Notes under the pieces: generated by a model
Database searches by the model: none
The model's input: only the letters and a program-made list of their open reading frames with translations
What the model was told of the DNA's origin: nothing
NCBI GenBank assembly: GCA_965207225.1
Contig: CBDBLV010000004.1
Coordinates: forward strand, 839,397 to 903,396
Length of the DNA: 64,000 bases
Direction of reading: 5' to 3'
From: Dehalococcoidia bacterium
GTDB taxonomy: Bacteria > Chloroflexota > Dehalococcoidia > Plut-88900
In this document: in pieces, positions 560 to 54,967 of the stretch
Numbering within the stretch: the first letter of the stretch is position 1
How the letters are laid out: every line of letters starts with the position of its first letter
Position numbers and translations under genes: made by a program

Positions 560-1441
560 GAGGGTGTCTGAAAAGGTATTTCATGCGGGTCGCGCCAGTC
601 TGCGCAGCATCAGCCTGACCATGGCAGCACATACAAGCGCCTCCTCTGTCTCTGGCAGGAACTCATAGTCCTTCGACAGCCGACGGTTGCGAACCAGCCA
701 CGCAAACGTACGCTCCACCACCCATCGCCTGGGCAACGCCACAAACCCCACCGGGCGAGTCGGCGGATCCTGGTCATCTCGTAGCCACACCCTCCCACTC
801 CACGGATGTCGAACCACCTCCAGATCCCACCCCAACTCGGCCCGCATCCACTCCTTCAGTCCCCTGTAAGCGCTGTCGGCCCATACCTTCGCCATTCTCG
901 GGAACACGCCTCGCAACTTCCCAAGCAGCAACTCCGCTCCCTTCCTGTCGCGCAATCCCGCCTCATGCGCCACCACCTTCATCGCTAAACCCCGTGTATC
1001 GACCAATATGCGCCTCTTTCGCCCATTTATCTTCTTGCCTCCGTCGTAGCTTCGAGGCCCCTTTTTTCCGTGATCCTCACCGACTGGCTGTCGATGATTG
1101 CCGCGCTCGGCGTGGGATCGCGCCCCTGCCTCATTCGCTCCCGCTCACGCAGATCCTGGTTGATCTCCTCCCACACCCCTTCCATCCGCCAGGCTCTGAA
1201 GTAGTGATAGACCGTCTTCCACGGTGGAAGATCATGCGGAAGCATCCGCCAGGATATTCCACCCCTCAGAACGTAGAAGATGGCGTTGAGCGCCTCTCTG
1301 GTATCTGACGAACGTGGCCTTCCACCGGACCTCGCCGGTGGAATCAGCGGCTTGATGATGGCCCACTCTTTGTCGGTCAGGTCTGTCGGGTAAGATAGAC
1401 GCTTCATAATGAGCCTATCCTACACCCTTTCAGACACCCTC
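560..1441 (-). mobile_element. IS5-family (IS1031-like) insertion sequence, complete
   Basis: TIRs GAGGGTGTCTGAAAAGG / CCCTTTCAGACACCCTC; TTA duplicated at 557-559 and 1442-1444. Confidence 0.92.
581..1407 (-). CDS. IS5-family transposase in two frames (likely programmed frameshift)
   Basis: [14 protein letters not shown]...[18 protein letters not shown]...IIDSQSV; ORF B WADSAY...[12 protein letters not shown]; AAAAAAG slippery motif near 1060-1068. Confidence 0.9.
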
Positions 1442-1456: not shown

Positions 1457-2605
1457 CTAGCCTATGGATGCCCTTGCCTTTCTGACGATGTAGTCTATGG
1501 CACCAGCAGTCTCTTGCCTGCGACCGTATAAAGTCCCATCCGGTGCCACCAACCCGGCATTCACCAGCAACGATCCAGCGTTATATCCGGGCCTAAGTGA
1601 TGAGGATCGCAGGAAATCCGCCAAAGGCTGCCAGTCGTCTGTCCCCCAAGACCGGTAACAGCCTGCCAGTATCCTGAACACACTTATGTTGTATGCGAGA
1701 GTAGACGAACGTAGTTGGGGAATTTCCGAGTCTTGGACATCTCCAGAGACCAATTGCTGATATTCCTTACGAGCAGCAACCATGAATTCATCTGCCCAAT
1801 GCAGACTGCGCTTGTACAGATCTTCCAAGTTCAGCATATACGAATCATTGAGGTCTCTGCTGACACGCCTCCCGGATCCTACCTCCATGGTTTTCAGGGT
1901 GGTTGCCAGCTGATTGATTGCGATTATGTTCTGGCTGGCTCTTGGGACACTGGACCTCTCCATATCGACTCGGCCGGCGAATAATTTGCTGTTTTCGGAG
2001 AGCCACATCGCAGCCAGATTGAAGGCGTCTCTCTGATCGAATCTGGTAACGGTGTGCGCCTCAATTCGTTTTGTTTGCGACGCATCTACGAACATTTGCC
2101 TCAATGTCTTGATTTCGTCCTCGGCGTATAGGACTATGGTCATTGATGCCCTTCTCAATGTATCTAGTTTGTCGGCGTTGCGGTCATCATCCAAGTTGGA
2201 TAGGTCATACAGTACGTCCTGTATCGCGCGGCGACGATGCTGACCGTCAAATATTCTCAGGGTGTTTGTCCTGTTAGTGAGAATTCGCAGTTCGCCGAAA
2301 TCTGGGTATTCATCCGAATCATAGGGATCGAACTCTACGGCGTTGGGCGCAACCCCAAGCATCAATGCGCCGAGCAGCCAGTTATCTTTCTCGTCAAGAT
2401 ATCTCTGAATGTTCTTTGCATGGCTCGGCGTAAGACGGCGATTGGCTTCTCTGACTATGTTGTCTTCCACACGCTGAGGCAGTAGCCCATCGAGTGTCTG
2501 AAGATCGAGCGCGAAGTAGTACACGTCGCGACCTCCCTGACGGAACCGATGGGATGGAATACGCAGGCTATACTGGTTGCTTACTTCAGGTATCACCAAT
2601 GCCAT
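1457..2605 (-). CDS. DGQHR-domain protein (DndB/DpdB-like, ParB-like fold)
   Basis: FDGQHR motif, N-terminal QGGR..Y and ANR.L...H motifs; AGGAGG RBS. Confidence 0.85.
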   Translation of the reverse strand: MALVIPEVSNQYSLRIPSHRFRQGGRDVYYFALDLQTLDGLLPQRVEDNIVREANRRLTPSHAKNIQRYLDEKDNWLLGALMLGVAPNAVEFDPYDSDEYPDFGELRILTNRTNTLRIFDGQHRRRAIQDVLYDLSNLDDDRNADKLDTLRRASMTIVLYAEDEIKTLRQMFVDASQTKRIEAHTVTRFDQRDAFNLAAMWLSENSKLFAGRVDMERSSVPRASQNIIAINQLATTLKTMEVGSGRRVSRDLNDSYMLNLEDLYKRSLHWADEFMVAARKEYQQLVSGDVQDSEIPQLRSSTLAYNISVFRILAGCYRSWGTDDWQPLADFLRSSSLRPGYNAGSLLVNAGLVAPDGTLYGRRQETAGAIDYIVRKARASIG

Positions 2606-2653
2606 CTGAGAACCTCCTTGAATGTTATTTCCAAAGGGCTTGCAATTCTGTAC

Positions 2654-4237
2654 TTAGTTTCGACCGGCTACTCCCCTTGCCTCACTTACTATGTAGTCGA
2701 TCGCTTGAACCACCAAGCGTTGCTGCGCATCTGGCGAAGTACCGCCAGGAGCTACCACACCAGCATCTACCAATAGAGCGTTTGTGCGGCTACGCGGCTT
2801 TAGTGAAGCATCGCGAAGAAATGACGCCAAGTGTTCCCAGTCAGAACTGCTCTTTGACCATTCGTGATGACATCCTGCGAGAATCCTGATGACAGTGGCG
2901 TTGTACGCCATAGTTTTAGTACGCATCTGGGGAAGGTCTGAGTTATCGATTTCACCGGCCATGAGGTTGTTGTATTCGCCCCTCGCGGCGGGCATGAAGT
3001 CGTCTGCCCAATCCAGACACCGTTCATATAGAGAATCCAAGTCAAGCATGTAGGTTTCGTTAAGATTCTTGCTGACCCTGCCTCGGTATCCGACCTCCAG
3101 GGTTTTTAGGGTAATCGCCAACTGGTTGATAGCGATTATGTTGTGGCTGTTTCTGGGAACTGACGCTCTCTCCATCTCGACACGACCTGCAAACAGGTCG
3201 CTGTTTTCGGCAATCCAGAGCGCAGCCAAGTTGAACGCATCCCGCTGGTCGAATCTGACGACTGCATTTTTCTCTATGGGTCTGGTCTGAGCTGCATCTG
3301 CGAACATTTGACGCAGGGCTTCTATGCTGTCCTCAGCATAGAGCATAATGGGCAATGAAGACTTTTTCAGAGAAGACAGCTTCCCGAAGTACGCGCGATT
3401 ATGGGAAAGTTCTTCCAACGCATCCTTGATTGCACGCCGTCTGTGCTGGCCGTCGAACATTTTCATAGAAGCGGCATCATCTCGAGAGATTGAGAGTTCT
3501 CCCACAGAGAGGTTGCCAGAGTATGGACGAAATTGCACAGCATCCGGAGAAACTCCCAACAGCAGCGTTCCCAACAGCCAATCGTCTCGATCCTCCAGGT
3601 AATCCTGGATTTTCTTGGCATGGCTTGGCGTCAATGGGCGATTGGCGTCTCTAACCATTCTGTCATCTATCCGGTCGGGTAGAAGGTCGTTCATAGTTTC
3701 TAGGTCCAAGGCGAATGCGTACACATCGCGTCCGCCCTGCTGGAACCTGTGAGCAGGCATCTTGAAAGGCATCAGCGCCTCCTTGAGGTTTTCCACAGCC
3801 AAGCCATGTTCGGACTCGTTGATCTCCGAGAGCGCCTTACCGATATCGGTCAAGCCGGACGTAGCGCACACAAGGTCAATGTCATGCTCGGGAGGGTGCG
3901 ATACCTCGTTGCGCGCTTTGGTGATCGCGTACATGGTATCCAACGGTCTCGCGCCCGGCGCGAAGGAATTTTGGAACACGTCCCGCCAGTACTTCTTGAT
4001 GATCTGAGGGAAGTCGCCGATGTCTATTGATTCTGCGACGCTTCGACCAGCGCGTCGGTTCTGTATGAACTGATTGTACTGGTCGTCCCGGAGCGCAGAG
4101 CCTACTAGCTCCTCTACCTCTTTGCCCAAGATGCGCTTGAGGTGTCGGATGATGAAAGGTCTCATTGCGTCTCGGTAAATGTCCAGTCCATCGGTTAGTG
4201 CTTTCTTGTTTGGACGGTCAATCGCTATCACTGCCAT
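2654..4237 (-). CDS. Swt1-like HEPN domain fused to a DGQHR domain
   Basis: N-terminal helical domain with D..DF..II...W..VF and RNEVSH (R-x4-H); C-terminal FDGQHR domain paralogous to 1457-2605; GGAGG before ATG 4237. Confidence 0.8.
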   Translation of the reverse strand: MAVIAIDRPNKKALTDGLDIYRDAMRPFIIRHLKRILGKEVEELVGSALRDDQYNQFIQNRRAGRSVAESIDIGDFPQIIKKYWRDVFQNSFAPGARPLDTMYAITKARNEVSHPPEHDIDLVCATSGLTDIGKALSEINESEHGLAVENLKEALMPFKMPAHRFQQGGRDVYAFALDLETMNDLLPDRIDDRMVRDANRPLTPSHAKKIQDYLEDRDDWLLGTLLLGVSPDAVQFRPYSGNLSVGELSISRDDAASMKMFDGQHRRRAIKDALEELSHNRAYFGKLSSLKKSSLPIMLYAEDSIEALRQMFADAAQTRPIEKNAVVRFDQRDAFNLAALWIAENSDLFAGRVEMERASVPRNSHNIIAINQLAITLKTLEVGYRGRVSKNLNETYMLDLDSLYERCLDWADDFMPAARGEYNNLMAGEIDNSDLPQMRTKTMAYNATVIRILAGCHHEWSKSSSDWEHLASFLRDASLKPRSRTNALLVDAGVVAPGGTSPDAQQRLVVQAIDYIVSEARGVAGRN

Positions 4238-4327
4238 ATGGGATGACCTCCACATCGATTCCTGAGAGCCATGCATGGGCAATCTGCCAGATCAGCACTT
4301 GCCCCGAAGCAAAATTTACAGCACATC

Positions 4328-4358
4328 TAAAATAACATATTATTTTACGTCTTGTCAA
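4328..4358 (-). promoter_or_regulatory. Putative sigma70 promoter with overlapping palindromic operator
   Basis: TTGACA (4358-4353) followed by palindrome TAAAATAA-n4-TTATTTTA (4328-4347), upstream of the HEPN-DGQHR operon. Confidence 0.55.
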
Positions 4359-4375: not shown

Positions 4376-5313
4376 GGTCGCCCGATAGGTGGTGTGCGAG
4401 TTTGGGATGAATTCGAGATGGGGGCGCCCCCTCCAGACGGGCGACAGCCGGCTACGCCGCCATCAGCTCTGTAGCATCGAGTCTGTGCCCGCTCCACATC
4501 CACTGCGCCAGCCCCAATCCGTTCATCATCCCAGATTCGCTCTTGTACCCCCTCGCCGTCTTGTGCCTGACTTTGCCGCTGCATATCGCCCGTTCCGTGC
4601 TCTTCGACCGCCGGCTTGTACGTCGAAAGATGTCGTTCGCCGCCGACCCCACGCCGAACTTGCTCATGCACCCGCTCAACCACTCCACAAAAGCCGCCGG
4701 ATCTCGCCTCGTCAGAACGTCCATACCCAGAAGTTGACCGCTTTCGGCGTTAGCAACGAAGCCGACCACCGCCTCCTCGCCCCGCAGCTTCATGAAAGTC
4801 TCGTCCGCTCCGATCACTCGAACCCTGCCTGGCGCCGAGCGCGCCAAGCCCGACAGGGCGCTTGTCCCCGCTTCCCGCGCCGCTCGCCACACGCTCATCC
4901 TAGACATGTCGCATCCCAGGGCGGTCAGCGTGTGGGTTGCGGACCTAAGCGACAGTCCCAGCGCCCAGCTCAGCGCGGCGAACGTGAGCCTTTGGCTCTG
5001 GTCGCGCCGGTCCACGCCTTGCGGGTAGTGTCTGAATGCGCGTCCGCAGTCCGCACACAGGAATCTCAGCGCCATGACCGCGTCGACTCGGATGTCCTCG
5101 ATGGGCTGTTGGACTTCGCCGTGCTCGCGTAGGACGCCGCAGCCGCATCGAGGACATTTCGACGGTCGACAATCCGGCCGGATCTTGACCTGTGGGAGCG
5201 TGAATCGTACCCTTGGCATCGCCGGGGAACCTCCGGGAATTGTTTGTTGAGTATCAGCACCCTACCAGGTTCCCCAACCCTTTTCTTCAAACACCGCCTA
5301 TGGGACGATTACG
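4376..5313 (-). mobile_element. Degenerate IS (IS1/IS6-like DDE transposase with Zn ribbon), pseudogene 4452-5219
   Basis: CxxC...CxxC, HTH, GADET first catalytic Asp; internal deletion; weak terminal IRs; homologous to the copy at 10280. Confidence 0.65.
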
Positions 5314-7317: not shown

Positions 7318-8751
7318 CTAGTACTACAGTCGCAGATGATCATGGAGATGCTGGAGTCGGCGTTGGTAGTGGCAACGGCGGGCCCGGGCCTGGTGGCGTC
7401 GTCTCCAGCGGGACCAGGCTAACGCCAATTCGGGCGACCCCCTGGGCTGCCAGATCAATCGGCACAGCAGTCGTCGCACCTCGGGAACCGTGAACGGTAT
7501 CAGTCTTTGATCCCGACCCGCGTCTCCCCCTTTTTGACTTCTGGGCAGGCGTTAGCCCGTAGCCGCACTACCGCCAGGAAGGCATGGGCCAGCATGGCCA
7601 AGGTGACGTGCCGGTACCATCCCTCCCATCTGCGCACTTCATACTGGTCCAGGCCCACCTGACCCTTGGCTTCCTCAAAACATTCTTCAATGGTCCACCG
7701 AGTTCCCACCACTTGCGCCAGTTCCTTCAGAGTCGTCTCCCCAGGGCCGTAGCAGACGTAATAGGCCAGCTCTTCAGGCTGAGCTATGCTGCGGCGGACC
7801 AGCAGCCAGTACCCCTTGCCTGGTTCCCGCAAAGGACGGATAGCAACCCAGGTCCAGTCGTAAATCCTAGGTCCCTTGGCCCCGTCCCCAGCGCTCAACC
7901 GGACCCAGTCCGCTTCTTCCACTTGGGACGCCAACCGGTCCGCACGCGCCTGGCTGTACCCTTCCTCCGTCCATGCCCACAGCTTCTCGTTGCTCTTGAT
8001 AGCCAGCGCGTGGGATATCTCTCGCTCCTCCAGCCATCGCCGCAGCCTGCGGTCGCTGCCGTACACCGTGTCTCCGGCAAACCACCGGAAGGGGATGCCC
8101 CCTTCTGCCGCACGCTCCACATTTTCCGGGCCAGTTGCGGCTTGGTCTGGAACCTTACCCCCTCCGGCGCTCCCGCCTCATGGCGCCGCTCCCAATCCTC
8201 TGACCATACCTGGGGCAAGTACAGCTCGCGATCCAACAGAACCCTGCCCTGGGCGGTAGCGTAGGTCAGGAATACTCCTACCTGGCAGTTCTCTATTCGC
8301 CCCGCCGTCCCACTGTACTGACGTTGCACCCCCGCCGACTTGCTTCCCTTCTTCAGGAATCCCGTCTCGTCCGCCACCAGCGCCCCGCAAGCGTCTCCCA
8401 GATACTCCACTACGTAGTCCCTGAGATCGTCTCGAACCAGCCCAGCGTCCCATACATAGTTGTACAGCAGGCGCTGCACTCCATCGGGCGTGGCATCCCC
8501 CGCCTGCTCCGCCAACTGCCATCCGTTCTTGCGCTCCACGGGACTGAGCAGCCCTTTCAGGTAGGCCAGTGCCCGCCAGCGGGGTTCCGAACGGTAGAAC
8601 CGTGCCCCAATGCGCCGGTGGAGGTCCTCAATCCCTTTGGCCCACTGCGCCACTTCCAACACCTCAACCATCTCTCCAAACAACTCCTCTCCTCACCAAT
8701 TATCTGAAGTAACCCTATTCTACTTGAACTTATCTGCGACTGTAGTACTAG
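7318..8751 (-). mobile_element. IS701-family IS, transposase frameshifted
   Basis: Inverted ends CTAGTACTACAGTCGCAGAT / ATCTGCGACTGTAGTACTAG; [40 protein letters not shown]; frameshift near 8120. Confidence 0.9.
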
Positions 8752-9607
8752 GGCGTGTCGTCAAATTCGTGAGATGGTGTTAGCCTAGGCGCGTAAAGTT
8801 ATACAGCCCGAGGGGAAATGTGTCCACCATGACAAGAGCGCCCGCCCACCGCCGCCACGATATATCCGACAGAGTCTGGAACATCCTCGATCCGCTGCTG
8901 CCTGGGCGCAAAGGCAGCTTGGGACGTCCTGCCCAAGACAACCGCCGCTTCATCAACGCGGTGTTCTGGATAATCCGCACAGGCGCGCCTTGGAGAGACC
9001 TTCCGCCTGACTACGGCGACTGGAAGAATACCCACCGTCGCTACAGCCGTTGGCGGGATAGAGGTGTGTGGGAGGAGATACTGGATGCGCTGATGGACGA
9101 ACCAGACTTTGAATGGCTGATGATTGACGCCAGTTATGTGAAAGTCCACGCACACGGCACAGGAGCGGAGGGTGGCAGTGAGGCTATCGGTCGCACAAAG
9201 GGGGTTGAACAGCAAGTTGCGCTTGGCGGTGGACGCACACGGTCTGCCAGTAAGGATGCTGGTCACTGCGGGTACGGTGGCGGACAGCAGCGAGGCGTTG
9301 GCGTTGATAGAGGGCATAGAAGCGGAACATCTGCTGGCGGACAAAGGATATGACAGCAATGCTATCGTGGAGGGAGCGTTGGAGCGTGGGATGAATCCTG
9401 TGATACCGCCCCGTAGGAACCGGCGTGAGCAGAGAGGATATGACCGTTATCTGTACCGGTTGCGGCATTTGGTGGAGAATGGGTTCTGTGAGTTCAAGGG
9501 ATGGCGAGGGATAGCGACCCGGTATGCGAAGAAGGTGTCATCATATTTGGCAAACTGCCAGATTAGGGCAATACTCATATGGGCTAAAATCATTTGACGA
9601 CACACCC
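8751..9607 (+). mobile_element. IS5-family (IS427-like) IS; two-frame transposase 8829-9597
   Basis: TIRs GGGCGTGTCGTCAAA / TTTGACGACACACCC, TA on both sides; RTGAPWRDLP, IDAS, ADKGYD, RHLVEN, RGIATRY. Confidence 0.9.
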
Positions 9608-10205
9608 TAACAGCGTCGTCTCCTAAGTTGCGGACCGCTTTCGGTACGCTCTGCTCGTAGAGGCGACGCGCCACTTCGGGGGAGCGGAAGCCCAGGCCGC
9701 GCCCCCGAAGTCCGCGCGTCTGAAACAGGCGTCGCGTCTGCGGGGATAGATTATTCCACCCGCCAGTCGAGTTAGTGATGACTCCGCTCACCGGACGCGC
9801 CGCCATCCCACTTGCGACGGAGCCAGTGTCCGAACCGGCCCCGTCGTTGATGCCGTTCACGACTTCCAATTCGGTTTCAGGCCATGCGTAGATCTTCTGG
9901 GCGACAACGCTAGCGCCCTTAGATATCGTCTTGTCGCAGTAGCCGCACCGGACGTCATCTCGAGTCTTTTCCCGGGATGTGTACCAGTGATTGAGCCTCC
10001 GGGTGTAGCAGGCGCGGGATCTAAGTCCTTGCTTGCGTGTCTTCGCTTTGCACTCGGCGCACTCGATACAGGAATTCTCGTATTTGCGTCGCAGGAAGTC
10101 ATCAGGCATCGCTGGAGGCATTTGCGATAGGCATCGGGATCCCACAGAGATCATGTGACTGCACTCCGTACAGCGGATGTCTTCCTCTGCGATTACTTGC
10201 CACAT
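9608..10205 (-). pseudogene. Cys-rich (multiple CxxC) protein truncated by the IS5 element
   Basis: AAGGA RBS; CTEC, CIECAEC, CGYC; frame runs into the IS end at 9607. Confidence 0.6.
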
Positions 10206-10279
10206 GTCTGTTCCTTGTCAGAATCGGAATGTACGAATCATACCATATTCGGATGTGATGTAGGAGTCCCCACCTAGAC

Positions 10280-10960
10280 GGTAACCGTCCCATAAGCAGT
10301 TGTTGAAGAAAAGAGTTGGGGAACCTGATAGGGTGTTGACACTCAACAAACAACTCCCGGAGGTTCCCCAGCCGATGCCAAGGGTACGACTCACGCTCCC
10401 ACAGATCAAGACCCGACCGGATTGTCGACCGAAGAAATGTCCACACTGCGGCTGCGGAGTCCTGCGCAAACACAGCGAGATCCCAAAGGCCCATCCAGAA
10501 CTTCAGATTCCTGTGTACGGACTGCGGACGCGTGTTCAGACACTACCCCAAAGGTGTGGACAGACACACTCAGAGCAGGAGGCTTAGGGCGTTCGCCGCG
10601 CTGAGCTGGGCGTTGGGACTGCCGCTGAGGTCCGCAACCCACATCCTTGCCGCCCTCGGATGCGGCGTGTCGAGGATGAGTGTGTGGCGAGCCGTCCAGG
10701 AAGCGGGGGCGAACGCGCTAGCGGGTTTGCGCCGCGCCGCGCCCGGCAGCGTTCGAGTGATGGAAGCGGATGAGACGTATGTGAATCTCAAGGGGGAGAA
10801 GATCGTGGTCGGCGTGGTGGTGGACGCCGAGAGCGGTCGGTTTGTGGGGATGGACGTTCTTTCCAATCAGGATACGGCGGCGTTTCTGGAGTGGCTGGAA
10901 GGGTACGCGCGCGAGTTCGGCGTCCAGACGCTGGTGACCGACGATCTTGCGACGTACAAG
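10280..10960 (+). mobile_element. Second, truncated and frameshifted copy of the IS1/IS6-like element
   Basis: MPRVRLTLPQIK..., FRHYPKGVDR, EADETY, LVTDD; left end shared with 5220-5313. Confidence 0.7.
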
Positions 10961-11050
10961 GTGGTAAAAGTCCCTCAACCACTGTTCAGTCATCTCGTGG
11001 AGTCTCTCACCTATGCCGCTCGACGGCCTCGACCAATGTACAAAGTCGAG
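10961..11050 (+). mobile_element. Right-end remnant of an IS related to 44773-46220
   Basis: PQPLFSHLVESLTYAA resembles PTPLFNKFIESLSYAA; end ATGTACAAAGTCGAG resembles ATGTACAAAGTCCAG. Confidence 0.65.
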
Positions 11051-11163
11051 GCCAGACAGCAGTGAATAAAGACTGATGCCAACTAGAATCATGAGTCATT
11101 CGAGGCTTGGGAATCAGTGATTCCCCGCACCTCGGCATGGAGGGCTTGTCCACAATGGACCGA

Positions 11164-12582
11164 TCACTTGATGCGATTGTGATAGTGGTTCCAAAAAGTC
11201 TCGCGTAGCAAAGGGTCGCTCGTCTGTAGACGTACTACTGACTGTGTACTTTTTTCCTTAAGTACCAAGTACTTGGATCTAGGCTGAACGAGTTCGTACT
11301 CAAGGGTGTTCGTAAAGATGCGGTGTAGTAGATCTGTCACCTGGTCTGTGGAGGTGGCCACCATCGCTCCGACAGCTACGCCCGTATCAAAATTAATCAG
11401 ACGGGACAGAGGATGTACATCGCGGAAGAAATCACTTCTGAATTCCTCGTTCGCGAAAATGATGACGGGCTTCCCTAGACTCAGCGCCATGGCAGCCTCA
11501 GCATCCTTGCCGTAGCTATCACGACTACCAGCATTAAGAATGAGAGCCTTTGCACACTTCACCATCAGACACTCGACTATCCCCTTGTCCTCGTGGTGCT
11601 CTGCGGCACTAAGCGTGGGGTCAAAATACCGGAGCTTCAACGATTGCAATTCGTAATCGTCAAACACCTTTTCACAAAACTCTGCCATGTCGCGGAAGTC
11701 GTCCCGGGTACGCATTGAGGTTGCTATATATACATCCAAGTCGCCTACCATTGACAAGTACATATGGGTATTCGAAAGGGCTGCTCTCCGGGCGCGGGTG
11801 AATTCTTGAGCGACGCGGCGAATCTTCTCAACTAGGCCGTCTTCATCTTCTAGGACCTCTTCCATAAAGTCATCCGCCGAGAGTTGCAATTGCGGCTGAA
11901 GATGTGCGTATTGTGTTTTTGCATAGTCGCCAGTTAGTAGCTGTCTAGCGGTCAATGGAACCCCACCATCGGTGCGGTGTTTTCGGAATAGGTCGATCAT
12001 GACCTGCTCTATCTGGTTAGCGTCTCCTTTTCCCTCGACAAGCTCGAACGACTTGCAAGCCATCTCAGATATCAGATAGCGATTGTCTTTGGCGATCTGT
12101 GAGAGCAGAAGAGCTTCACCACGTTCTTTCAGCCCAGTAATTCGGCTGGAGTCGAAGAAGGCATGCAGGTCAGTCTCGGACAGTTGACGGAGCCTTTGAT
12201 AGGCGGTCCTGATGCTCCCGAAGTACAGCAGGGCGTCCACGTAAAACCTATACAAACCCCAGTAGAGCTGGTCGATAGACTGAATGTTCTTCGATCCAGG
12301 CCAACGTTCGTCGAAGCAGGGAACGCGGCAGACATCGTAGGGATGCTCCGGAGCGCTAAGCCAATAGTAAGTGAACAGCGGTTGTGATACTGGTGCTTCA
12401 TGAGCCAAAGTCAGCAGCTGATTAAGCCGCGCCCTGCTGAGCGGGTGCGTTTCGAGATCCGCTAGTGCATTGAAGACCTCGTCGGGCGTCTCTGGCCGCA
12501 GCCAACTGTCGAGGCCACCAGTTCCACCTTGAAATAGCTGAAACTGCTCAAGGATTTGTTCCTTTTTCACTGTCGTCGACAT
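11164..12582 (-). CDS. Protein with C-terminal nucleoside 2-deoxyribosyltransferase (NDT)/TIR-like Rossmannoid domain
   Basis: DVYIATSMR, YFDP, DSYGKDAEAAMALSLGKPVII; lower GC than flanks. Confidence 0.6.
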   Translation of the reverse strand: MSTTVKKEQILEQFQLFQGGTGGLDSWLRPETPDEVFNALADLETHPLSRARLNQLLTLAHEAPVSQPLFTYYWLSAPEHPYDVCRVPCFDERWPGSKNIQSIDQLYWGLYRFYVDALLYFGSIRTAYQRLRQLSETDLHAFFDSSRITGLKERGEALLLSQIAKDNRYLISEMACKSFELVEGKGDANQIEQVMIDLFRKHRTDGGVPLTARQLLTGDYAKTQYAHLQPQLQLSADDFMEEVLEDEDGLVEKIRRVAQEFTRARRAALSNTHMYLSMVGDLDVYIATSMRTRDDFRDMAEFCEKVFDDYELQSLKLRYFDPTLSAAEHHEDKGIVECLMVKCAKALILNAGSRDSYGKDAEAAMALSLGKPVIIFANEEFRSDFFRDVHPLSRLINFDTGVAVGAMVATSTDQVTDLLHRIFTNTLEYELVQPRSKYLVLKEKSTQSVVRLQTSDPLLRETFWNHYHNRIK

Positions 12583-12681
12583 CAGGCAGTCATTTCCCCT
12601 TCTCAGTTTCCACGCGTACTCTCGCGGGAGCACATCCAATATATGTATCTATGTAGGCTCGTGCATAGTCTCACATAGGGT

Positions 12682-12857
12682 TCAGTGATTCTTCGTGATC
12701 TCGCGAGGGTTGCCCACAAGCGGAAATCAGTGTCTCCCGCGAGCTTCGGTTGGTTTCTCAGTCACCAAGCTAAGGAGGATGATACCCTAGTCTGGAGACT
12801 TTGGAAAGCTCAGTGAGAGCGGGATTTCAGTTTGAACTTGGGGCGCTGACTAGGCAC
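12682..12857 (-). repeat. Dispersed promoter/end repeat, copy 1
   Basis: Reverse complement aligns with 51662-51865 and 53168-53341 (GAGCTTTCCAAAGTCTCCAG, CTAGGGTATCATCCTCCT, ATCACGAA). Confidence 0.85.
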
Positions 12858-12944
12858 TCATAGAATGCCGACCCTTATTGTTACCAGCCGTCGAGCCTTC
12901 TATGGCTGAAAGAACTCATAACCTCCCTTGACACCTCGGATTCA

Positions 12945-15900
12945 TCAGGGCTGGCTGAATGCCCAGTCCTTAGACAGAACTTCGGCTTGCTCCAAGACGG
13001 TCTGTGTCGCTTTCTCCTGCTTGTCCGGCGGGTAGCCGTGTTTGCGGAGGATGCGGCGAACCAGCCTCCGCAGATTGGCGCGGACGTTCTCCCGCAGCGT
13101 CCAGTCGATGGTGACATTGTTCCGGACCGTTTCGACGAGCTGGCGGGCGATGTCTCGGAGAGCATCGTCGCCGAGCTTCTGTACGGCGCTGTCGTTCGTT
13201 CCCAGCGCGTCATAGAAGGCCAGTTCGTCTTCCGACAGTCCCAGTCGTTCGCCCCGCGCGTGGGCCTCTCGCATCTCCTTTGCGAGAGCGATCAACTCCT
13301 CGATTACCTGAGCCGCCTCTATCGTGCGGTTTTGATAGCGGCGCAGCGTCTGTTCCAGCATCTCTGCGAAGGAGCGGGCCTGCACCACGTTCTTGCGGCG
13401 GCGAATGCTCAGCTCGCCCTCGAGCAGCTTCCGGAGCAGTTCGACCGCCACGTTGCGATGCTGCATCCCTCTGACCTCGGCCAGGAATTCGTCCGACAAT
13501 ACCGAGATGTCCGGCTTGCGCAGACCAGCGGCGTCGAATACGTCCATCACTCCCTCGGCGGCGACGGCCCTGGATATGATCTGTCGCACGGCGAGGTCAA
13601 TGTCCTCAGCCAATCGAGCGGCCCTTGGAGCCTGTTTCGACAGCGCGGCGCGTACAGTCTGGAAGAAACCCACGTCATCGCGTATTCGCATGGTCGCCGG
13701 GTGTGGCACGGAGAGCGCGAAGGCTTGCGACAGCTGCCGGACGGCGTTCAGGTAGCGTTCCTTCCCGTCCTCCTGAGCCAGTATGTGTTCTTGAGCTGCG
13801 GGCAGGAGGGACAGGCGTTCCCGATGAGATCCCGTCTTCCAAACACCCCAGTCGAAGCCGTGGAACAGGCGACAGCAGATCTCATGCTTTTCCAGCATCG
13901 CGTCGACCGCCTCTTCCTGGTCCAGCGCCGTACTGCCGCTACCGCCGCTTTCGGTGTACGTCGCCAGAGCCTGTTTCAGGTCTTGCGCCAATCCGAGGTA
14001 GTCCACCACCAGGCCACCGGGCTTGTCCCCAAACACGCGGTTGACTCGCGCTATCGCCTGCATAAGCCCGTGGCCACGCATTGGCTTGTCAACGTACATG
14101 GTGTGCAGGCTGGGCGCATCAAACCCCGTGAGCCACATATCGCGCACCAGCACGATCTTAAACACGTCGTCCGGGTCACGGAAACGTTGCGCCAGCGCCT
14201 CGCGCCGCGCCTTGTTCCCAATGTGCGGCTGCCAACCCACAGGATCAGACGCCGAGCCGGTCATTACGACCTTGATCTCGCCCTTGCCATCATCGTCGTC
14301 ATGCCAGCCGGGACGCAGCCGGACCAGTTCGCGGTACAGCTCGACGCAGATGCGGCGGCTCATGCAGACGACCATCGCCTTGCCTTCCAGCGCCTCCCGG
14401 CGGCTCTCGAAGTGGGCAACGATGTCCTCCGCGATCTGCTTGACCCGCGCGGGCGCGCCGACGACCGCTTCCAGCTGCGCCCACTTGGTCTTGAGTCGCT
14501 CCCTGCGTTCTATCTCCTCGCCCTCGGTCGCTTCCTCGAAGTCGGGGTCTATCTTCGGCCTCTCGCGCTCGTCTAGAGCGAGCTTGGCAAGGCGGCTTTC
14601 GTAGTAGATCGGCACCGTTGCGCCGTCCTCGACGGATCGCCGGATGTCGTAGATGCTGATGTAGTCTCCGAACACGGCGCGGGTGTTGGCGTCCTGGATC
14701 TCGATGGGCGTGCCGGTGAAGCCAACGAACGATGCGTTGGGCAGCGCGTCTCGCATATGTCGGGCGTATCCGTCGATGAAGTCGTACTGGCTGCGGTGCG
14801 CCTCGTCCGCGATTACGACGATGTTGCGCCGCTCCGACAGCGTGGGGTGCGTATCGCCGCGCTCCTCTGGGAAGAACTTCTGGATGGTGGTGAAGACCAC
14901 GCCGCCGGCGTTGACCGATAGCTTGGCGCGCAGGTCGGCGCGGCTCTGCGCCTGCGTCGGCGGCTGGCGCAGCAGATCCTGGCAGCGAGAGAAGGTGCCG
15001 AATAGCTGGTCGTCCAGGTCGTTGCGGTCGGTGAGGACGACGACGGTCGGATTCGCCATCGCCGGATCGCGGATGATGGCACCGGCGTAGAACGCCATCG
15101 TGAGACTCTTTCCCGAACCCTGCGTGTGCCATACGACCCCGATGCGGCGGTCGCCCGGCTCTCCGCCCGGTCGTCTCGACTCGTACTCGTCGATTCTCGC
15201 ATCGCCTACACGCCCAATACGCGCCGCCCTAAGCGTCTCCTCTACGGCTACGCGCACGGCATGGAACTGGTGATAGCCCGCCATCTTCTTGACCGGCGCG
15301 CCGCCCCCATCGTCATCAAACGCGATGAAGTCTCGGATCAGAGAGAGAAAACGGCTCCGCTCAAAGACGCCTTCGAGCATCACCTGGAGCTGGGGGGTAT
15401 GAGAGTCTGCCAGCGCCTCGCCGGTGACGGTTCGCCAGGGCTTGAACCACTCCTTGCCCGACGTGAGAGCGCCTACCCGCGCTTCGATGCCGTCCGACAC
15501 GACCAGCGCCTCGTTCATGGAAAACAGCGTGGGAAGCTCAGACTTGTAGGTTTGGAGTTGGTTCCATGCCGTCCAGATCGTCGCGTCCTCGTCCGCGGGG
15601 TTCTTCAGTTCGATAATGCCAAGGGGCAGGCCGTTGACGAACAGCACCACGTCCGGCCTTCGGGTGTTTCGGTCCTCGGTGACGGTGAACTGGTTGACGG
15701 CGATCAGGTCGTTATTGGCGGGGTTGTCGGAGTCGATGACTCGGACCTGGTTGCCTCGTAATCGTCCATCCGCATCCTGGTACTCGACCTCCACGCCGTT
15801 GACCAACATCCTGTGGAATGCCCTGTTGCGAGCTTCTAGGGTTGAACCCTGGGGCCGGGTCAGCTTGCGGTAGGCATCTTCCAGCGCCGACGCAGGCAGC

Positions 15901-16082
15901 GCAGGGTTGAGTGTGGCTACAGCATCCCGCAGCCGACGCTCCAGCACCACTTGGCCGTAATCGGTGCGCTCGTCATTGGAGGTCTCGGGAGCGATGTCGG
16001 GGCCGTGTGCCGTCTGCCAGCCAAGACCCTTCAGCCAGTCAAGGGCAGCCTGCTCGACTTCGGCCTCAGTGATAGTAGTCAT
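12945..16082 (-). CDS. hsdR: Type I restriction endonuclease subunit R
   Basis: RPD...IELK nuclease, [36 protein letters not shown]; ATGA overlap with upstream gene. Confidence 0.96.
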
Positions 16083-16591
16083 TTCATCCAGTCCACGACG
16101 CCAGCGATTGCCAGGATAACCATAACCGTCAGACCCGCATGAAGCCCAGCGAAGAGGATAGGTATCCACCGTTCGCTCTTCGACACAGCACGATACGCCG
16201 GACCTTGTCCCTCCTCAGCCAATCGCCACTCATGCTTGTACATCGCCACTGGAAGATGTTGCTCGAACTCGTGAATCACCTTGAACTTGACTGTGTTCAG
16301 GTCTGCGTGTGACTTGATGATCAGATACCAGAGCAGGGACACGGGAATCCCTATAATGGGAATCAGCAGCGTCCAGTAGCTCTGGCCGAAGTTTGCGGAC
16401 TGCAGCCCATACAGCGCAACCAGCGCGGCGTTAATGGTCAGCAGGTAGCGGTTTGAGGTGACACGCCGTGAGCTAACATTCTCAGCAGATTGAACGTATA
16501 GCTTGTACTGCTCCAGCAGGTCTGCCTTAAACGACTTGCCGTAGGATTCTTCGGTCCTAGGAATCAATGATCCGCACTTCTCGGTACCCAT
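16079..16591 (-). CDS. Small multi-pass membrane protein (RipA/8xMP, SLATT-like effector type)
   Basis: [34 protein letters not shown]; three hydrophobic segments. Confidence 0.65.
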
Positions 16592-16593
16592 GC

Positions 16594-16983
16594 CTACCTC
16601 GGACTAGCGATGAGTTCTTTCAGGGTGGGCCAAGTCCAAGGATGCATCACCTTCTTCTTCGGCGCTGTGTTCGGGCGGGAACATTGCCCTTGCCTGCGGC
16701 CCTTCAGCAAGAAGTAAGGCTTCTTCTCTTCCCGAGTGATGGCAACCTCGCCTGCTACTCCGCTGGCCCTGTGCGTACGCCGTCCGCAGATAACGATGAC
16801 AAGGTCGCACCTGCGTATCCGAGACCGAACCTCATCCCGCCATTTTTCGTCGATTCGTCCGTACACAGACTCATCCTTTATGCTGAATGGCGAGTCTGAC
16901 CTCTCAGCTTGGGCGACCAAATCGCCCCTCAGGTCCTTGTCGTTGTCGAAGTCAAAGCTGATGAATACGCTCTTGGTGGTCAT
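16594..16983 (-). CDS. Stand-alone TIR domain (ThsB/MTH538-like, DUF1863)
   Basis: VFISFDFDND, D.S, DLVIVICG..T...GV..E, KPYF. Confidence 0.82.
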   Translation of the reverse strand: MTTKSVFISFDFDNDKDLRGDLVAQAERSDSPFSIKDESVYGRIDEKWRDEVRSRIRRCDLVIVICGRRTHRASGVAGEVAITREEKKPYFLLKGRRQGQCSRPNTAPKKKVMHPWTWPTLKELIASPR

Positions 16984-17065
16984 TTGGTATCTCCTCTCAG
17001 CGCTGCCTGTTCAAAATCGGCTTCGTGATGGTGGTCGGAGGTCTGAGCATTGGAAATGAAGAACT

Positions 17066-18106
17066 CTACGGTGTATTGGGTGCATCGAAGTCAATCTCAA
17101 GCATATGAAAGCCTTTCTGCTCAAGAAAGTCGGCAACCGCCTGTTGATACTCGGGCATATACTCAATGTCAACGACTCCCGCAAGTTCCGTTGCTGCATT
17201 TGTAAGGAGAATCACAGGCAACGTTATGGTTTGGTCTCCCTGTCGCTGATCAATTGGCGTCAGCGCCCAGCTGCGCCCTTGAAATCCATGTGCCATTGAT
17301 ATCCACCGGGGCGACTTATCCAAGCCACCATCGATTACCACATGCTGCAGCTCCGAATCGTATCCTGGGGCTATGAGACCGTGTTCATTTAGCCGATTTA
17401 GGGCAGTGTAACTTAAGCCATATTCCTTTAGAGAGTTATTTGCGGCTCGACCATCCAAGGAAATGACAAATTCATTTCCTGCTCGTTTTGCACCACCTCC
17501 CCTTAGACCAATCTGAGGTGTCATCCTAGCTGAGCACAATCCTCTAAAAAGTCTAGCCGTTGCTCTATCGAGATTCTTGAGGATGCTCATAGTTCTAAAT
17601 GAAGTGCTCCCGGGTCTTTCTACTTCACCTGCAAGGATCTTGCCCCAGAGCTGTTGCATCTCTTCAGAAGATACGTCTTGCACATCATTGAAGAATCGCG
17701 CTGTCCAGTCGTGATCAACGTCGTGGTCTTGGACCTCCCTATCTCCAAGCTCCAAGGCGGCCTGCGCAACCACTGATCCGATGTTGGCCTGACGCTTCTC
17801 CTCTCGGAACTGCACTCTTTGCTCTATGAGATCTCCTATTGTCACTTCCCCTTGAAGTGCTGCTTGAGGAGAGATCAGCTTTGATCGCGCCTCCACCTGC
17901 GCCGCGGCAATGATCTGTATGGACGTTGCGCGACCCTGAGTCAGGATTCGCTGTGCCTCTGCTTCCCCTTCCGCAGCTATGGCTCTTACCTCAGCGTCAC
18001 GTCGCGCTACCATGCGAGAGAAGAAGAAGCTCGCCGTGCTACCTATTCCACTCGCCGTATAATCGATTAGCTTCTCAATAGCCCGCACATTTACCTTGAT
18101 ATCCAT
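17066..18106 (-). CDS. DUF2806-family protein
   Basis: RQANI, DWTARFF...VSSEEMQQLWGKILAGEVERPGSTSFRT; TAATG overlap with hsdS. Confidence 0.8.
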   Translation of the reverse strand: MDIKVNVRAIEKLIDYTASGIGSTASFFFSRMVARRDAEVRAIAAEGEAEAQRILTQGRATSIQIIAAAQVEARSKLISPQAALQGEVTIGDLIEQRVQFREEKRQANIGSVVAQAALELGDREVQDHDVDHDWTARFFNDVQDVSSEEMQQLWGKILAGEVERPGSTSFRTMSILKNLDRATARLFRGLCSARMTPQIGLRGGGAKRAGNEFVISLDGRAANNSLKEYGLSYTALNRLNEHGLIAPGYDSELQHVVIDGGLDKSPRWISMAHGFQGRSWALTPIDQRQGDQTITLPVILLTNAATELAGVVDIEYMPEYQQAVADFLEQKGFHMLEIDFDAPNTP

Positions 18107-19422
18107 TACGTCACCCGCACTCCCCCCGACACCAACCCCGGCAGCAGTGCATCTCGCTGGGCAGCAAGGACCAGTGACTCTTGGCGGTTGAACTCGATCT
18201 GAGCAAATAGAGGACTGACCAAGGCTTTTAACTCTGCCCATATCTCTGCTGGAGGGTACGGCAACAAGTAAGGGGCCAACGCGTCAACCTGAACTCTCTG
18301 CCGTCCGGACGTCCCCGTCATGCTTTGGATGGCGTGCTCTCGGAATGCGGCGTCACGGGCCAAGAGGTATGTGTATTCAGATGGAACAGGTGGAATCGCC
18401 CGCATCACAATGAATTCGGTCGAGCCCCAACCCGCCGTACCTGCCGCCAGCGACTGGACAAAGGCCGTCTTGCCGTTTTCCAAGCAGGGAGTAATCCGTG
18501 CAAGGAGCGTATCGCCGTTGCGAAAGCGGGTACCGGATTTGAACTCTCGCAATATGGGAGAGCTTGGACCAGACCCAGACGTTGGGAGGGATGCCATGTC
18601 AAGGTAATGAGCCACGGTTCCCCGCTTCATTGGCTCAGGGGGGTTTAGCTTCACTACCTCCTCCAGTGCTTTTACCTCCCACTCCTCCGGGATCTCCCCC
18701 AGCTCCGAGTCCACCAGCCGGTCCGGGAACAGGTTGTAGAGGTCGGAGGAGAGGCCGGGCAGCGACTCGCCCCGGTGATAGCGGCCCTCTATCTTGGCCC
18801 GCACAGGGTCGAAGTCTACGAACCAGGACTTGAACAGCGTCCTGGCCATCTCCTCCAGCGTTTCGTTCATCCGCCGGTTCAGCTCGATCTTGTCATCCAG
18901 CGTGCCGAGGATGCGGGCGATGGCGCGCTGTTCGGAGAGGGGTGGGAGTGAGAATATATATCGTGAAACGTGTTCCCAATCGGCTCGAGGCATTCTTGTA
19001 CCTGTTGAGCCGGCCATGGCGAAGTCCACGAACTCATGGGATGCCATGCAGTAGTGAAGATAGCCTTGTTCAACTCCCTTCTTTGCGCGAACTACCCAAA
19101 TGTCGGTCGAACACAACCCATTTGCAGGTGCACGGACTACCTTTCGAAAGTATGGACGTAGCTTACCGAACAAGGTGTCGCCGCACTTAAATCGCGCCTT
19201 TGTACTGGTTACATCGGTAGCTGTTCCTTGTCCGACTAGGGATAGGGTGCCTTCTCCTATGTGCTCAAGACCTATGTAAAGAGCATCATCCATTTCAGAA
19301 GGGGATACAGTATCCCGAATCAACTCCGCGCACTCCTCTAACGTCGCCTTGCGCCATCCGTCCGCCGCCCGGTTCAGAAACTGTGGCGCAATACGTTTGT
19401 CTAGATCAGCCATTGCTGCCAT
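18106..19422 (-). CDS. hsdS: Type I R-M specificity subunit
   Basis: Two TRDs separated by LPPLSEQRAIARILGTLDDKIELN...ELGEIPEEW; ends QRDALLPGLVSG. Confidence 0.93.
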   Translation of the reverse strand: MAAMADLDKRIAPQFLNRAADGWRKATLEECAELIRDTVSPSEMDDALYIGLEHIGEGTLSLVGQGTATDVTSTKARFKCGDTLFGKLRPYFRKVVRAPANGLCSTDIWVVRAKKGVEQGYLHYCMASHEFVDFAMAGSTGTRMPRADWEHVSRYIFSLPPLSEQRAIARILGTLDDKIELNRRMNETLEEMARTLFKSWFVDFDPVRAKIEGRYHRGESLPGLSSDLYNLFPDRLVDSELGEIPEEWEVKALEEVVKLNPPEPMKRGTVAHYLDMASLPTSGSGPSSPILREFKSGTRFRNGDTLLARITPCLENGKTAFVQSLAAGTAGWGSTEFIVMRAIPPVPSEYTYLLARDAAFREHAIQSMTGTSGRQRVQVDALAPYLLPYPPAEIWAELKALVSPLFAQIEFNRQESLVLAAQRDALLPGLVSGGVRVT

Positions 19423-19424
19423 CT

Positions 19425-19736
19425 CTAAAACTCCACATCGCGGGGTCTCAAAGGTATCCGCTCAAATTCGAAGTCTTCGGAGCCGCCTTTGGGTATTGCC
19501 AGCGGGTGCTCCGCGAAGCTCGGTATGTCTTCCTGTGTGGGGGCGCTGTCTTGGATTAGCTCGGCGGTCGTCTGATGATCGTAGAGACGCGCGTATTCGT
19601 CCGCCGACAGCACGACGACGGCGGATGCGCCATCGCATGATACGCGCTGCGGTTCGCCGGTTAGGGCGGCGTCAACTATGGCGGTAAAGCTATTCTTGGC
19701 ATCCTGCAAAGTCCAGTCTGTCACTATATCCTCCAT
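19425..19736 (-). CDS. Orphan Phd/YefM-family antitoxin
   Basis: WTLQDAKNSF..IVDAA..GEPQ.V...G..AVVVLS..EY. Confidence 0.75.
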   Translation of the reverse strand: MEDIVTDWTLQDAKNSFTAIVDAALTGEPQRVSCDGASAVVVLSADEYARLYDHQTTAELIQDSAPTQEDIPSFAEHPLAIPKGGSEDFEFERIPLRPRDVEF

Positions 19737-19781
19737 CTAGCGCGCTGGCCGGGGCATAGATACTCTATCATGCCCTCTTGG

Positions 19782-20192
19782 CTACGGTTGGCAAAGCGGG
19801 GGACCTAGCACGTCTCGGCCGTCGAACTTGGCGCCGGGCTTCTGAAGCAGTATGTCGAGGCGGATGTCTAGCAATTTGTGGATGGCGCGGGCCTGCGGTA
19901 CTGTTAGGTTTCGCTTGCCTTCCATCACTTCGCAGACTTTCGCATCGGTGCCGATGATTTGGATGAGGTCATGGGGCGTCAGATACCGGTCGTCCAGCGC
20001 GCGCTCGATGGCGGCGGCGGCGGTAGGAAAGCCCATCGGATAGCGCTTGTCTTCATATCTCACGACCATTTCCACTAGCGCTTCACATTCTTCACCCTCC
20101 GGTGTGCTCGGCTCTGCGGCGAATATCTCGTCGATCCGCCCAAGCGCGGCGTCGAGGTCTTCTTCGGTGAGAATTTCCGTGACAGCTACCAT
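19782..20192 (-). CDS. higA: HigA-like antitoxin
   Basis: L..LV..YE...YP and C-terminal HTH (G.RNLT..Q...IH). Confidence 0.75.
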   Translation of the reverse strand: MVAVTEILTEEDLDAALGRIDEIFAAEPSTPEGEECEALVEMVVRYEDKRYPMGFPTAAAAIERALDDRYLTPHDLIQIIGTDAKVCEVMEGKRNLTVPQARAIHKLLDIRLDILLQKPGAKFDGRDVLGPPLCQP

Positions 20193-20194
20193 AT

Positions 20195-20488: not shown

Positions 20489-20578
20489 AGTCGAGTCCGT
20501 CCCCAGTGTGCCGATGCATCTTGTCGCAAGTGTCGTTTGCCGCGCTCATTCTTCCATTATACCCCAGCCACGTCTTCC

Positions 20579-27050: not shown

Positions 27051-27267
27051 GATGGCCCGGCGGCAGCAGGCCCCCCGGCCCGTTGCCGGTCAACCGTTCT
27101 TGCGGGTTGCGTCAATGGATTTCGCCGGTCCGACTCCTTGTCTGACTGTGGATTCCGGCTGCATGGACGCGACGACGCGCAATTGACGCGACAGTCAGAT
27201 CCGTCGGTCTATCTCATCGTCCGCCCGCTGAGTCGCGCTTGCGGTTTTTGGGTGGCTCCGCCATAAT

Positions 27268-54965: not shown

Positions 54966-54967
54966 TA

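Follow-up and report, generated by a model that had tools for sequence, protein, structure and literature searches.

Paired DGQHR paralogs, one of them fused to a Swt1-like HEPN domain, form a predicted two-gene conflict module in a Dehalococcoidia bacterium

What does a pair of DndB-like genes do where no DNA-modification genes accompany it? The question is raised by positions 1457 to 4358 of a 64-kb stretch of DNA from a Dehalococcoidia bacterium (contig CBDBLV010000004.1; the whole stretch analysed is called the window), in which two adjacent genes both encode a DGQHR domain and the first also encodes an N-terminal HEPN domain. The best answer from our analysis, to which about an even chance is given, is that the two genes constitute a self-contained, horizontally moving conflict module, most likely directed against phages or mobile elements; judged from the sequences, the pair is probably an anti-phage defence module. 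Together with its relatives it makes up what appears from sequence comparison to be a real, widespread and coherent candidate system. The parts of the pair are located as follows.

2654..4237, minus strand: gene 1, HEPN-DGQHR fusion of 527 aa; the open reading frame (ORF) continues to a TTG at 4282 (2654-4282)
3773..4237, minus strand: HEPN (Swt1-like) domain, gene 1 residues 1-155 (PF18731)
3896-3913, minus strand: R109-N-E-V-S-H114 motif of gene 1
2657..3766, minus strand: DGQHR/DndB-fold (ParB/Srx-like) domain, gene 1 residues 158-527 (PF14072, TIGR03187)
3440-3454, minus strand: D262-G-Q-H-R266 motif of gene 1
1457..2605, minus strand: gene 2, stand-alone DGQHR paralog of 382 aa
2234-2248, minus strand: D120-G-Q-H-R124 motif of gene 2
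2613..2619, minus strand: Shine-Dalgarno sequence AAGGAGG of gene 2, read from the sequence, within the 48-nt spacer 2606-2653
4329..4358, minus strand: promoter-like TTGACA-18-TATTTT upstream of gene 1, a consensus match only

The first-pass annotation of this stretch described a two-gene operon, and the description was borne out. Both genes lie head-to-tail on the minus strand, gene 2 is downstream and starts 48 nt past the stop codon of gene 1 with a ribosome-binding site of its own, and no terminator-like site was found on the minus strand between them. The start of gene 1 is likely the ATG at 4237, because a GGAGG is located 10 nt upstream (4247-4251) and the N-termini of 29 homologs fall within a few residues of it. 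The promoter-like site (read 4358-4329) is weak evidence, because five such sites were found in the gene-pair region against 3.1 expected.

The domain content proposed for the pair was confirmed by Pfam and NCBIfam matches above the respective cut-offs. PF14072 (DndB) matched residues 160-474 of gene 1 with 145.7 bits and gene 2 with 141.4 bits (cut-off 29.1), and the DGQHR domain model TIGR03187 scored 108.9 and 93.5 bits (cut-off 58.85). HEPN_Swt1 (PF18731) matched residues 17-120 of gene 1 with 33.1 bits against a cut-off of 27.5, which places this domain among the Swt1-like HEPNs, with RNEVSH at residues 109-114. Gene 2 carries no effector and is a close paralog of the DGQHR part of gene 1: the two were aligned by BLASTP with 57% identity over 372 residues (E 3e-153), so their likeness is paralogy and not chance. 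The shared strings that had been quoted for the two proteins were all present in both; FDGQHRRRA was invariant in both paralogs in the ortholog alignments, and the other family motifs of gene 2 were likewise kept.

The catalytic motif of the HEPN domain is intact, R109, N110 and H114 (R-N-x3-H) showing no variation in two ortholog alignments of 30 and 20 sequences. The domain was modelled with a predicted local distance difference test (pLDDT) value of about 90, and the gene 1 model gave a weak match to the C-terminal domain of yeast Swt1 (4pqz, probability 0.77) in a fold search of the PDB. It evolves faster than the DGQHR domains, with a mean pairwise identity of 0.50 compared with 0.68 for the DGQHR domain of gene 1 and 0.65 for gene 2. 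HMMER, run exhaustively on 1.84 billion cluster representatives, returned 1011 matches at E<=0.001 (466 at E<=1e-10, 82 at E<=1e-30). Among 30 matches chosen for Pfam annotation, the N-terminal 150-aa HEPN module was found fused elsewhere to a DUF499 ATPase (4), DUF4268 (3), Mrr_N (1) and a UDG-superfamily domain (1), as the head of proteins such as P0209, P0271, P0272, P0224, P0252, P0269, P0243 and P0255. Judged from these architectures, the HEPN module is a portable effector head of DNA-directed proteins. DGQHR relatives without HEPN in the same set carried C-terminal Mrr_N, HARE-HTH or weak KorB-like HTH domains (P0128, P0136, P0129), so that the paralog core also occurs without HEPN and with DNA-reading winged helix-turn-helix additions. 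Such DNA-directed and DNA-reading fusion partners would suit a system in which DNA is inspected and an RNase is the response.

Is the pairing a property of the family or an accident of this genome? A search with the gene 1 protein against 5.8 billion proteins gave 923 matches at E<=0.001 among 8000 scored candidates; the best 120 relatives showed 59-100% identity over at least 87% of the query, and 113 of these 120 contained both PF14072 and PF18731. For gene 2, 950 matches were obtained, the best 120 at 61-100% identity. More than 100 clusters (90% identity) per gene were found at 59% identity or more to the window proteins. In at least 54 of the best 120 gene 1 relatives the longest contig was identical in size to that of a best-120 gene 2 relative, a count that is a lower bound on the co-occurrence of the two genes because only the best 120 of each gene were compared. 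A scan with one genome per species gave 50 stretches matching a pattern, of which 32 were confirmed, yielding 30 loci (L001-L030). These were assigned to Chloroflexota (25; 18 Dehalococcoidia, 3 Caldilineaceae and 4 unclassified), Latescibacterota (3), Nitrospinota (1) and Binatia (1). Their architectures, read from tblastn and ORF maps, were as follows.

19 of 30 loci (L001-L018, L025): HEPN-DGQHR gene, followed 14-97 nt later by the gene-2 ortholog
7 of 30 loci (L019-L023, L027, L028): two paralogs in the same order, the first gene beginning at the DGQHR domain
2 of 30 loci (L024, L026): a single DGQHR gene
2 of 30 loci: architecture unscored; L029 ends at a contig edge, and L030, on a contig of 4.5 kb, carries a frameshift

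Conservation of the pair in other genomes, which had been proposed as a check, was thus observed with the HEPN fusion and the gene-2 ortholog together in 19 of the 30 related loci. For the seven HEPN-less pairs, which span about 9950-12370 in each locus, no HEPN match was found anywhere in about 22 kb per locus. The second gene of one of them (L020) encodes 534 aa, with a C-terminal extension of about 150 aa to which no domain was assigned.

DndB and DpdB are the nearest named families of the pair, and absence of dndACDE and dpdA genes from the window had been noted before. No dnd, dpd or ssp genes were detected in the 64-kb window by Pfam, NCBIfam or PADLOC; the pair sits 1.4 kb from the left edge, so that on this side the window covers 1.4 kb and the related loci were needed to judge the absence of dnd genes. 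Modification genes lying just outside the window had been named beforehand as an observation that would speak against the proposal. None of the 30 related loci carried them within 5 kb: no Dnd, Dpd or Ssp modification genes were found by Pfam among the 97 immediate neighbours, and no PADLOC match to DndA/C/D/E, DpdA/B/C or Ssp was obtained among 221 proteins (>=150 aa, within 5 kb). Partial PADLOC matches to DpdE/F/J or PbeA helicase models were given by proteins that are better matched by other helicase or restriction-modification families. The pair itself failed the equivalog models by a wide distance, gene 1 and gene 2 scoring 63.5 and 60.5 bits for DndB (TIGR03233, cut-off 328) and 29.6 and 27.7 bits for DpdB (NF041060, cut-off 300). 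By these scores neither protein is a DndB or a DpdB. In PADLOC-DB v2.0.0 only partial cross-matches to DndB (74-75 bits) and DpdB (27-29 bits) were found, and no described system was matched by both genes; apart from these cross-matches, the models of that version do not cover the pair. The ESM Atlas returned only DndB/DGQHR clusters (best score 0.93).

When 614 ORFs from the 30 loci and the first 16.5 kb of the window were clustered all against all, no cluster other than the two DGQHR genes occurred in more than 5 of the 31 loci, and a hidden third conserved gene was therefore ruled out. The pair is an autonomous unit that inserts at many different places. Its neighbours include scattered conflict genes, namely HicB, an AbiJ N-domain, an AbiEii-like ATPase, HNH, MazF, a ThsB-like TIR protein and UvrD-like helicases (Pfam, 97 neighbours). 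Non-generic PADLOC matches above 100 bits were present within 5 kb in 11 of 30 loci (12 with a DinG-like helicase in L001), a descriptive count without a background rate. One locus (L005) has a full-length Tgt-family gene at 12791-13996 that begins at the stop codon of the gene-2 ortholog, a single case in 30; it was rejected as a DpdA, since the PF01702 match of 500.9 bits looks canonical and PADLOC gave no DpdA match at E<=1e-8.

Searches of plasmid and phage collections returned 329 plasmid and 42 phage records that match the DGQHR part at less than 30% identity, and 277 of the 329 plasmids were typed as conjugative. No match covered 80% or more of gene 1, and the HEPN part alone had no plasmid match. 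In public records these distant plasmid relatives are named "DGQHR domain-containing protein" and "DndB". Two such plasmid genes (L031 6959-8026, L032 5971-7257) are annotated DndB or DGQHR and lie without dndCDE, and on an Enterobacter plasmid the DndB/DGQHR gene stands among ArdR, SSB and TrfB-type genes.

How old is the pair, and when did it acquire the HEPN domain? A FastTree LG+gamma tree was built from the DGQHR regions of 57 ingroup proteins and rooted with the two distant plasmid DGQHR proteins mentioned above, the broken L030 being left out. All 27 first genes formed one clade (support 0.78) and all 27 second genes another (support 0.98); the two single genes (L024, L026) and the contig-edge gene of L029 adjoined the second-gene clade. 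Under this plasmid-protein rooting, the duplication is placed before the divergence of all sampled loci. The 20 HEPN-bearing first genes were monophyletic (20/20, support 0.88), six HEPN-less first genes were their sister clade (support 0.84) and that of L028 was basal. The pair seems older than the HEPN fusion because seven loci carry both paralogs without HEPN, and the tree suggests one gain of HEPN by a pair that was already there, a single loss being also compatible with these supports. Pairwise distances among the DGQHR domains of gene 1 correlated with those among the gene 2 proteins at r 0.62, a value reached in 0 of 2000 permutations; this indicates joint inheritance as a unit and not co-evolution as such, since relatedness alone would yield such an r.

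A complex of the two proteins was predicted with full-length ortholog alignments of both and three controls. The complex of gene 1 with gene 2 scored 0.73 compared with 0.00 for the best control; 58 of 80 solved complexes attained this level, as did 2 of 110 mismatched pairs. The runs agreed in at least 84% of contacts and the partner pLDDT was at least 78. The model speaks for a pseudo-symmetric heterodimer joined by the DGQHR domains, with the following predicted interface segments (gene 1 : gene 2).

160-178 : 17-34
206-226 : 62-82
289-300 : 149-160
307-318 : 167-178
493-511 : 351-365

From the DGQHR motifs, R266 (gene 1) and G121, H123 and R124 (gene 2) belong to the predicted interface, which includes no residue of the HEPN domain. 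The contact with the lowest expected error joins gene 1 residue 174 to gene 2 residue 30, which occupy the same alignment column. In this column 26 of the 27 first genes have Ala and the other has Ser, whereas all 27 second genes have Tyr or Phe; the three unpaired proteins have Ser or Thr. At column 245, Val in 26 of 27 first genes contrasts with Phe in all 27 second genes. A stretch R-x-Q-E is fixed in second genes (26/27 at each of three positions) and variable in HEPN-bearing first genes. Fixed complementary residues at the two-fold axis would be expected of specialised heterodimer partners, and in the model these columns hint at such a specialisation. Gene 2 had been thought to act as either a decoy antitoxin or a co-sensor. 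The co-sensor idea fits the predicted heterodimer; the decoy idea was not supported, as the motifs of gene 2 are under constraint like that on gene 1, the gene lies downstream, no contact with HEPN is seen in the model, and its orthologs stand beside HEPN-less first genes in seven loci. Every DGQHR motif is kept in gene 2, which makes it a partner subunit rather than a decoy antitoxin that has decayed.

How such a pair might work can be pictured as follows. HEPN RNases act as dimers, two domains being needed for the active site, and in ParB the N-domains engage in a nucleotide-driven manner. At the core, two DndB-like (DGQHR, ParB/Srx-fold) proteins of ancient duplication would form a heteromer, pairing via their nucleotide-binding N-domains as ParB protomers do around nucleotide, and this heteromer would serve as sensor and switch by binding a nucleoside triphosphate (NTP) and probably DNA. 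In the clade of the window, the first subunit would have gained the N-terminal Swt1-type HEPN RNase as effector. Since each heterodimer holds one HEPN and two are needed for an active site, the RNase should stay off in a lone heterodimer until a trigger gathers at least two heteromers; candidate triggers are foreign or modified DNA onto which they load, or an altered nucleotide state. Paired HEPNs would then cleave RNA and cause growth arrest or abortive infection of the infected cell. In its most specific form, which we hold only tentatively, the obligate heterodimer of DGQHR paralogs would be an NTP-driven DNA sensor, keyed by the small-versus-aromatic residue pair at its axis, that holds its lone HEPN off and fires when heteromers line up on invading DNA. 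If true, this would be a new class of abortive infection and the first case in which a heteromeric ParB-type nucleotide switch is employed in immunity.

Published work on related proteins is in line with a nucleotide-dependent core. A DndB-like protein has been stated to bind ATP and GTP in vitro (bioRxiv 10.1101/2025.10.10.680097), DndB is presented as a regulator modulated by ATP that might also be an NTPase or a nuclease (PMC10853773), and DpdB is described as a ParB-like ATPase (PMC12839542).

Several observations weigh against the defence reading and the switch proposed for it. Many loci have housekeeping neighbours (ribosomal protein S9, NusB, ClpB, S1, Tgt, dehydrogenases and transporters), which makes the defence-island signal partial and uncontrolled. 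Of the two models, that of gene 2 is good (mean pLDDT 91.0, predicted template modelling score 0.73); that of gene 1 reaches a mean pLDDT of 65.6, with residues 314-436 below 50. The ParB-like switch is deduced from Pfam and NCBIfam membership and weak fold matches, because no solved structure matches: a sequence search of solved structures with a profile of gene 1 and its orthologs (HEPN and DGQHR) gave 0 matches at E<=1, and the PDB fold search with both models gave nothing at E<=0.001. The weak matches of the gene 2 model were CTP-bound ParB (7bm8, probability 0.69), BrxU (7p9m, probability 0.63) and SspE (6jiv/7drr), those to BrxU and SspE with E 0.029-0.26. The complex score of 0.73 cannot tell a heterodimer from a homodimer, since the paralogs are 57% identical and close cousins of true partners also pass, and it may be driven by likeness to solved ParB dimers. 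Above all, the seven HEPN-less loci mean that the RNase is inessential to the action of the core, which may have a role outside defence. There the core must have an action of its own, perhaps as another or a weaker effector (DNA nicking, NTP hydrolysis), or together with unlinked genes; this is the main uncertainty.

The same loci lead to the alternative that survives best, although we give it a small chance: the DGQHR pair itself could be the effector, through ParB/Srx-type DNA nicking or through NTP hydrolysis and depletion, with HEPN as an optional back-up in one clade. HEPN-less pairs persist as intact genes in all seven loci, members of the ParB/Srx group are reported to have nuclease and NTPase activities, with DndB discussed as a nucleotide-degrading co-effector (PMC10853773, PMC12839542), and the best weak fold matches include the ParB-fold restriction proteins BrxU and SspE. 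However, no nuclease domain was detectable in the pair beyond the ParB-like fold, and the HEPN catalytic residues are invariant across the HEPN-bearing clade, so HEPN probably matters where it is present. This alternative differs from a sensor heteromer with an HEPN effector only in which part does the damage.

A toxin-antitoxin system is rather improbable. Here the HEPN-DGQHR protein would be a toxin that the effector-less gene 2 product titrates into inactive heterodimers, to be freed when gene 2 is degraded or displaced. The modelled heterodimer does leave one unpaired HEPN, presumably inactive given the dimer requirement mentioned above, and all 20 HEPN-bearing loci, the window included, show the two genes strictly linked. 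Yet gene 2 shows no decay: its motifs are invariant, and its mean pairwise identity matches the value for the DGQHR domain of gene 1. Its downstream position and its size, which is that of the DGQHR part of gene 1, are unlike those of usual antitoxins, and it makes no predicted contact with HEPN. In the seven loci with HEPN-less first genes its orthologs would have no HEPN toxin to neutralise, and the tree puts the duplication before the gain of HEPN.

Quite unlikely, too, is that the pair serves a DNA-modification system encoded elsewhere (Dnd, Dpd, Ssp or other) as an accessory or regulator, in the manner of the DndB regulator or the DpdB ATPase helper. Its family relationships, the Tgt-family gene directly after gene 2 in L005 and the statement that dnd components are often dispersed (PMC10853773) would agree with such a role. 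Against it stand the failed DndB and DpdB equivalogs and the lack of DndA/C/D/E, DpdA/C and Ssp within 5 kb in 30 loci and in the window; the Tgt gene has no PADLOC DpdA match and is one case in 30, and a paralogous pair with an HEPN fusion is not a feature of DndB or DpdB.

Least probable is a role outside defence, as a DNA-binding regulator, a nucleoid-associated pair or a device for mobile-element maintenance or establishment such as is suspected for orphan DndB-like plasmid genes. In its favour, distant DGQHR/DndB-like orphans are common on plasmids, most of them conjugative and one beside ArdR, SSB and TrfB, several loci are flanked by housekeeping genes only, and conjugation-type genes lie further along the window. 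Against it, the plasmid proteins are below 30% identity and their matches leave the HEPN part uncovered, a HEPN domain with invariant catalytic residues does not sit easily with a purely regulatory role, and the patchy distribution over phyla together with the insertion sequence (IS) flanks fits accessory conflict genes.

If the pair is the defence module proposed here, which known system does it resemble? With DndB and DpdB it shares the family (PF14072, TIGR03187), the DGQHR motif and membership in a nucleotide-binding family. Unlike DndB, the regulator of dndBCDE phosphorothioation, and DpdB, the ATPase of 7-deazaguanine Dpd systems, it fails the equivalogs, has no dnd or dpd partners nearby in 31 loci, and is a fixed pair of paralogs of which one member bears an HEPN RNase. 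The closest resemblance in workings is to GmrSD, BrxU and SspE, in which a ParB-like (DUF262) NTPase and an HNH (DUF1524) DNase in one chain sense modified DNA; the likely common plan is a ParB/Srx-fold nucleotide-binding sensor with a nuclease effector in defence islands. The pair differs in having an N-terminal RNase in place of a C-terminal HNH DNase and a sensor split into two paralogs. Neither DUF262 (GmrSD_N) nor DUF1524 HNH was detected in gene 1 or gene 2 (Pfam, E<=0.01) and the fold matches have E>0.01, so the likeness is one of analogy and not of membership.

The HEPN abortive-infection and toxin-antitoxin systems (AbiD/F, HEPN-MNT, RloC/PrrC, Csm6/Csx1) likewise use an R-x4-H HEPN RNase as a conditional effector. 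In contrast to them, the pair has no minimal nucleotidyltransferase (MNT), CARF, ABC-ATPase or reverse-transcriptase partner, and its regulator would be a ParB-like heteromer; the partner being a DGQHR paralog and not an MNT antitoxin, the pair falls outside HEPN-MNT. ParB CTPase clamps are comparable in the predicted dimer of nucleotide-binding N-domains with a GxxR-type motif (DGQHR) at the interface. They differ in that the pair is a paralog heterodimer outside a parA/parS context, and no ParB HTH or ParB C-terminal domain was detected in gene 1 or gene 2.

Whether the system is new, as the first-pass annotation had it, must be answered in two parts. The HEPN-ParB fusion architecture is not new, because a Swt1-like HEPN fused to ParB (Saro_3948, "mostly active") was listed in Table 1 of Anantharaman et al. 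2013 (PMC3710099), and ParB-HEPN combinations were remarked on by Makarova et al. 2013 (PMC3632139). As listed in that table, Saro_3948 has the same architecture as gene 1 at the domain level; the entry gives no paired paralog, gene context or function. For the paired module, no description of the paralog pair or of its independence from modification genes, nor any experiment on it, was found in the literature searched, though supplements of these papers may hold neighbourhood tables.

If confirmed, the pair would be a defence module of different design, with a heteromeric two-paralog sensor and an RNase compared with the single-chain sensor-DNase of GmrSD, BrxU and SspE. It would mean that DndB-like proteins live outside DNA-modification operons, which bears on "orphan DndB" annotations on plasmids and chromosomes, and it would offer a tractable case of ParB-type nucleotide switches rewired for immunity. 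Members of the family are numerous in uncultured Chloroflexota and in a small number of further phyla, whose defence repertoires are barely explored.

The pair lies in a region of the window that is dense in mobile-element remains. Its G+C content is 0.51-0.54, compared with 0.57-0.63 in the flanks, and IS debris is found round it at 581-1407, 4452-5219, 7500-8683, 8820-9353 and 10532-11065. This debris consists of IS5 and DDE_5 transposases, each split in two ORFs, and of DUF4096 and rve/IS-like fragments. A type I restriction-modification operon begins 8 kb from the pair (12945-22129, minus strand), with extra genes lodged between hsdR and hsdS. The features nearest to the pair and those of this operon are the following.

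581..1407, minus strand: IS5-family transposase in two ORFs (581-1006, 1027-1407), downstream of the pair (Pfam, NCBIfam)
4452..5219, minus strand: transposase-like fragment upstream of the pair, weak ISL3/IS6/IS66 (42 bits, cut-off 180), a remnant or distant relative
12945-16169, minus strand: hsdR
16079-16591, minus strand: 8xMP octameric membrane protein
16594-16983, minus strand: ThsB-like TIR protein
17066-18241, minus strand: DUF2806
18106-19422, minus strand: hsdS
20579-22129, minus strand: hsdM

The genes between hsdR and hsdS may form a TIR-membrane effector module embedded in the type I system. Beside hsdR, a 491-aa ORF (11164-12639, minus strand) in a stretch of low G+C (0.505-0.526) had no Pfam, NCBIfam or PADLOC match. 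Further along, three regions (27239-34039, plus strand; 33592-40154, minus strand; 53331-60919, minus strand) each encode a VirD4/TraG-like coupling protein, Replic_Relax and a large serine recombinase; judged from this gene content, they look like repeated or nested integrative mobilisable elements. The remaining features of the window are listed below.

60935-63229: TraC/VirB4-like ATPase
43514-44653, minus strand: protein with a GmrSD N-terminal (DUF262) domain only
46343-48631, plus strand: leucine-rich repeat and trypsin-like protease protein
48727-51458, plus strand: truncated DnaE-like polymerase, followed by a SRAP protein

The DUF262-only gene, the leucine-rich repeat protease gene and the DnaE-like/SRAP genes are further conflict or SOS-type cargo of the window.

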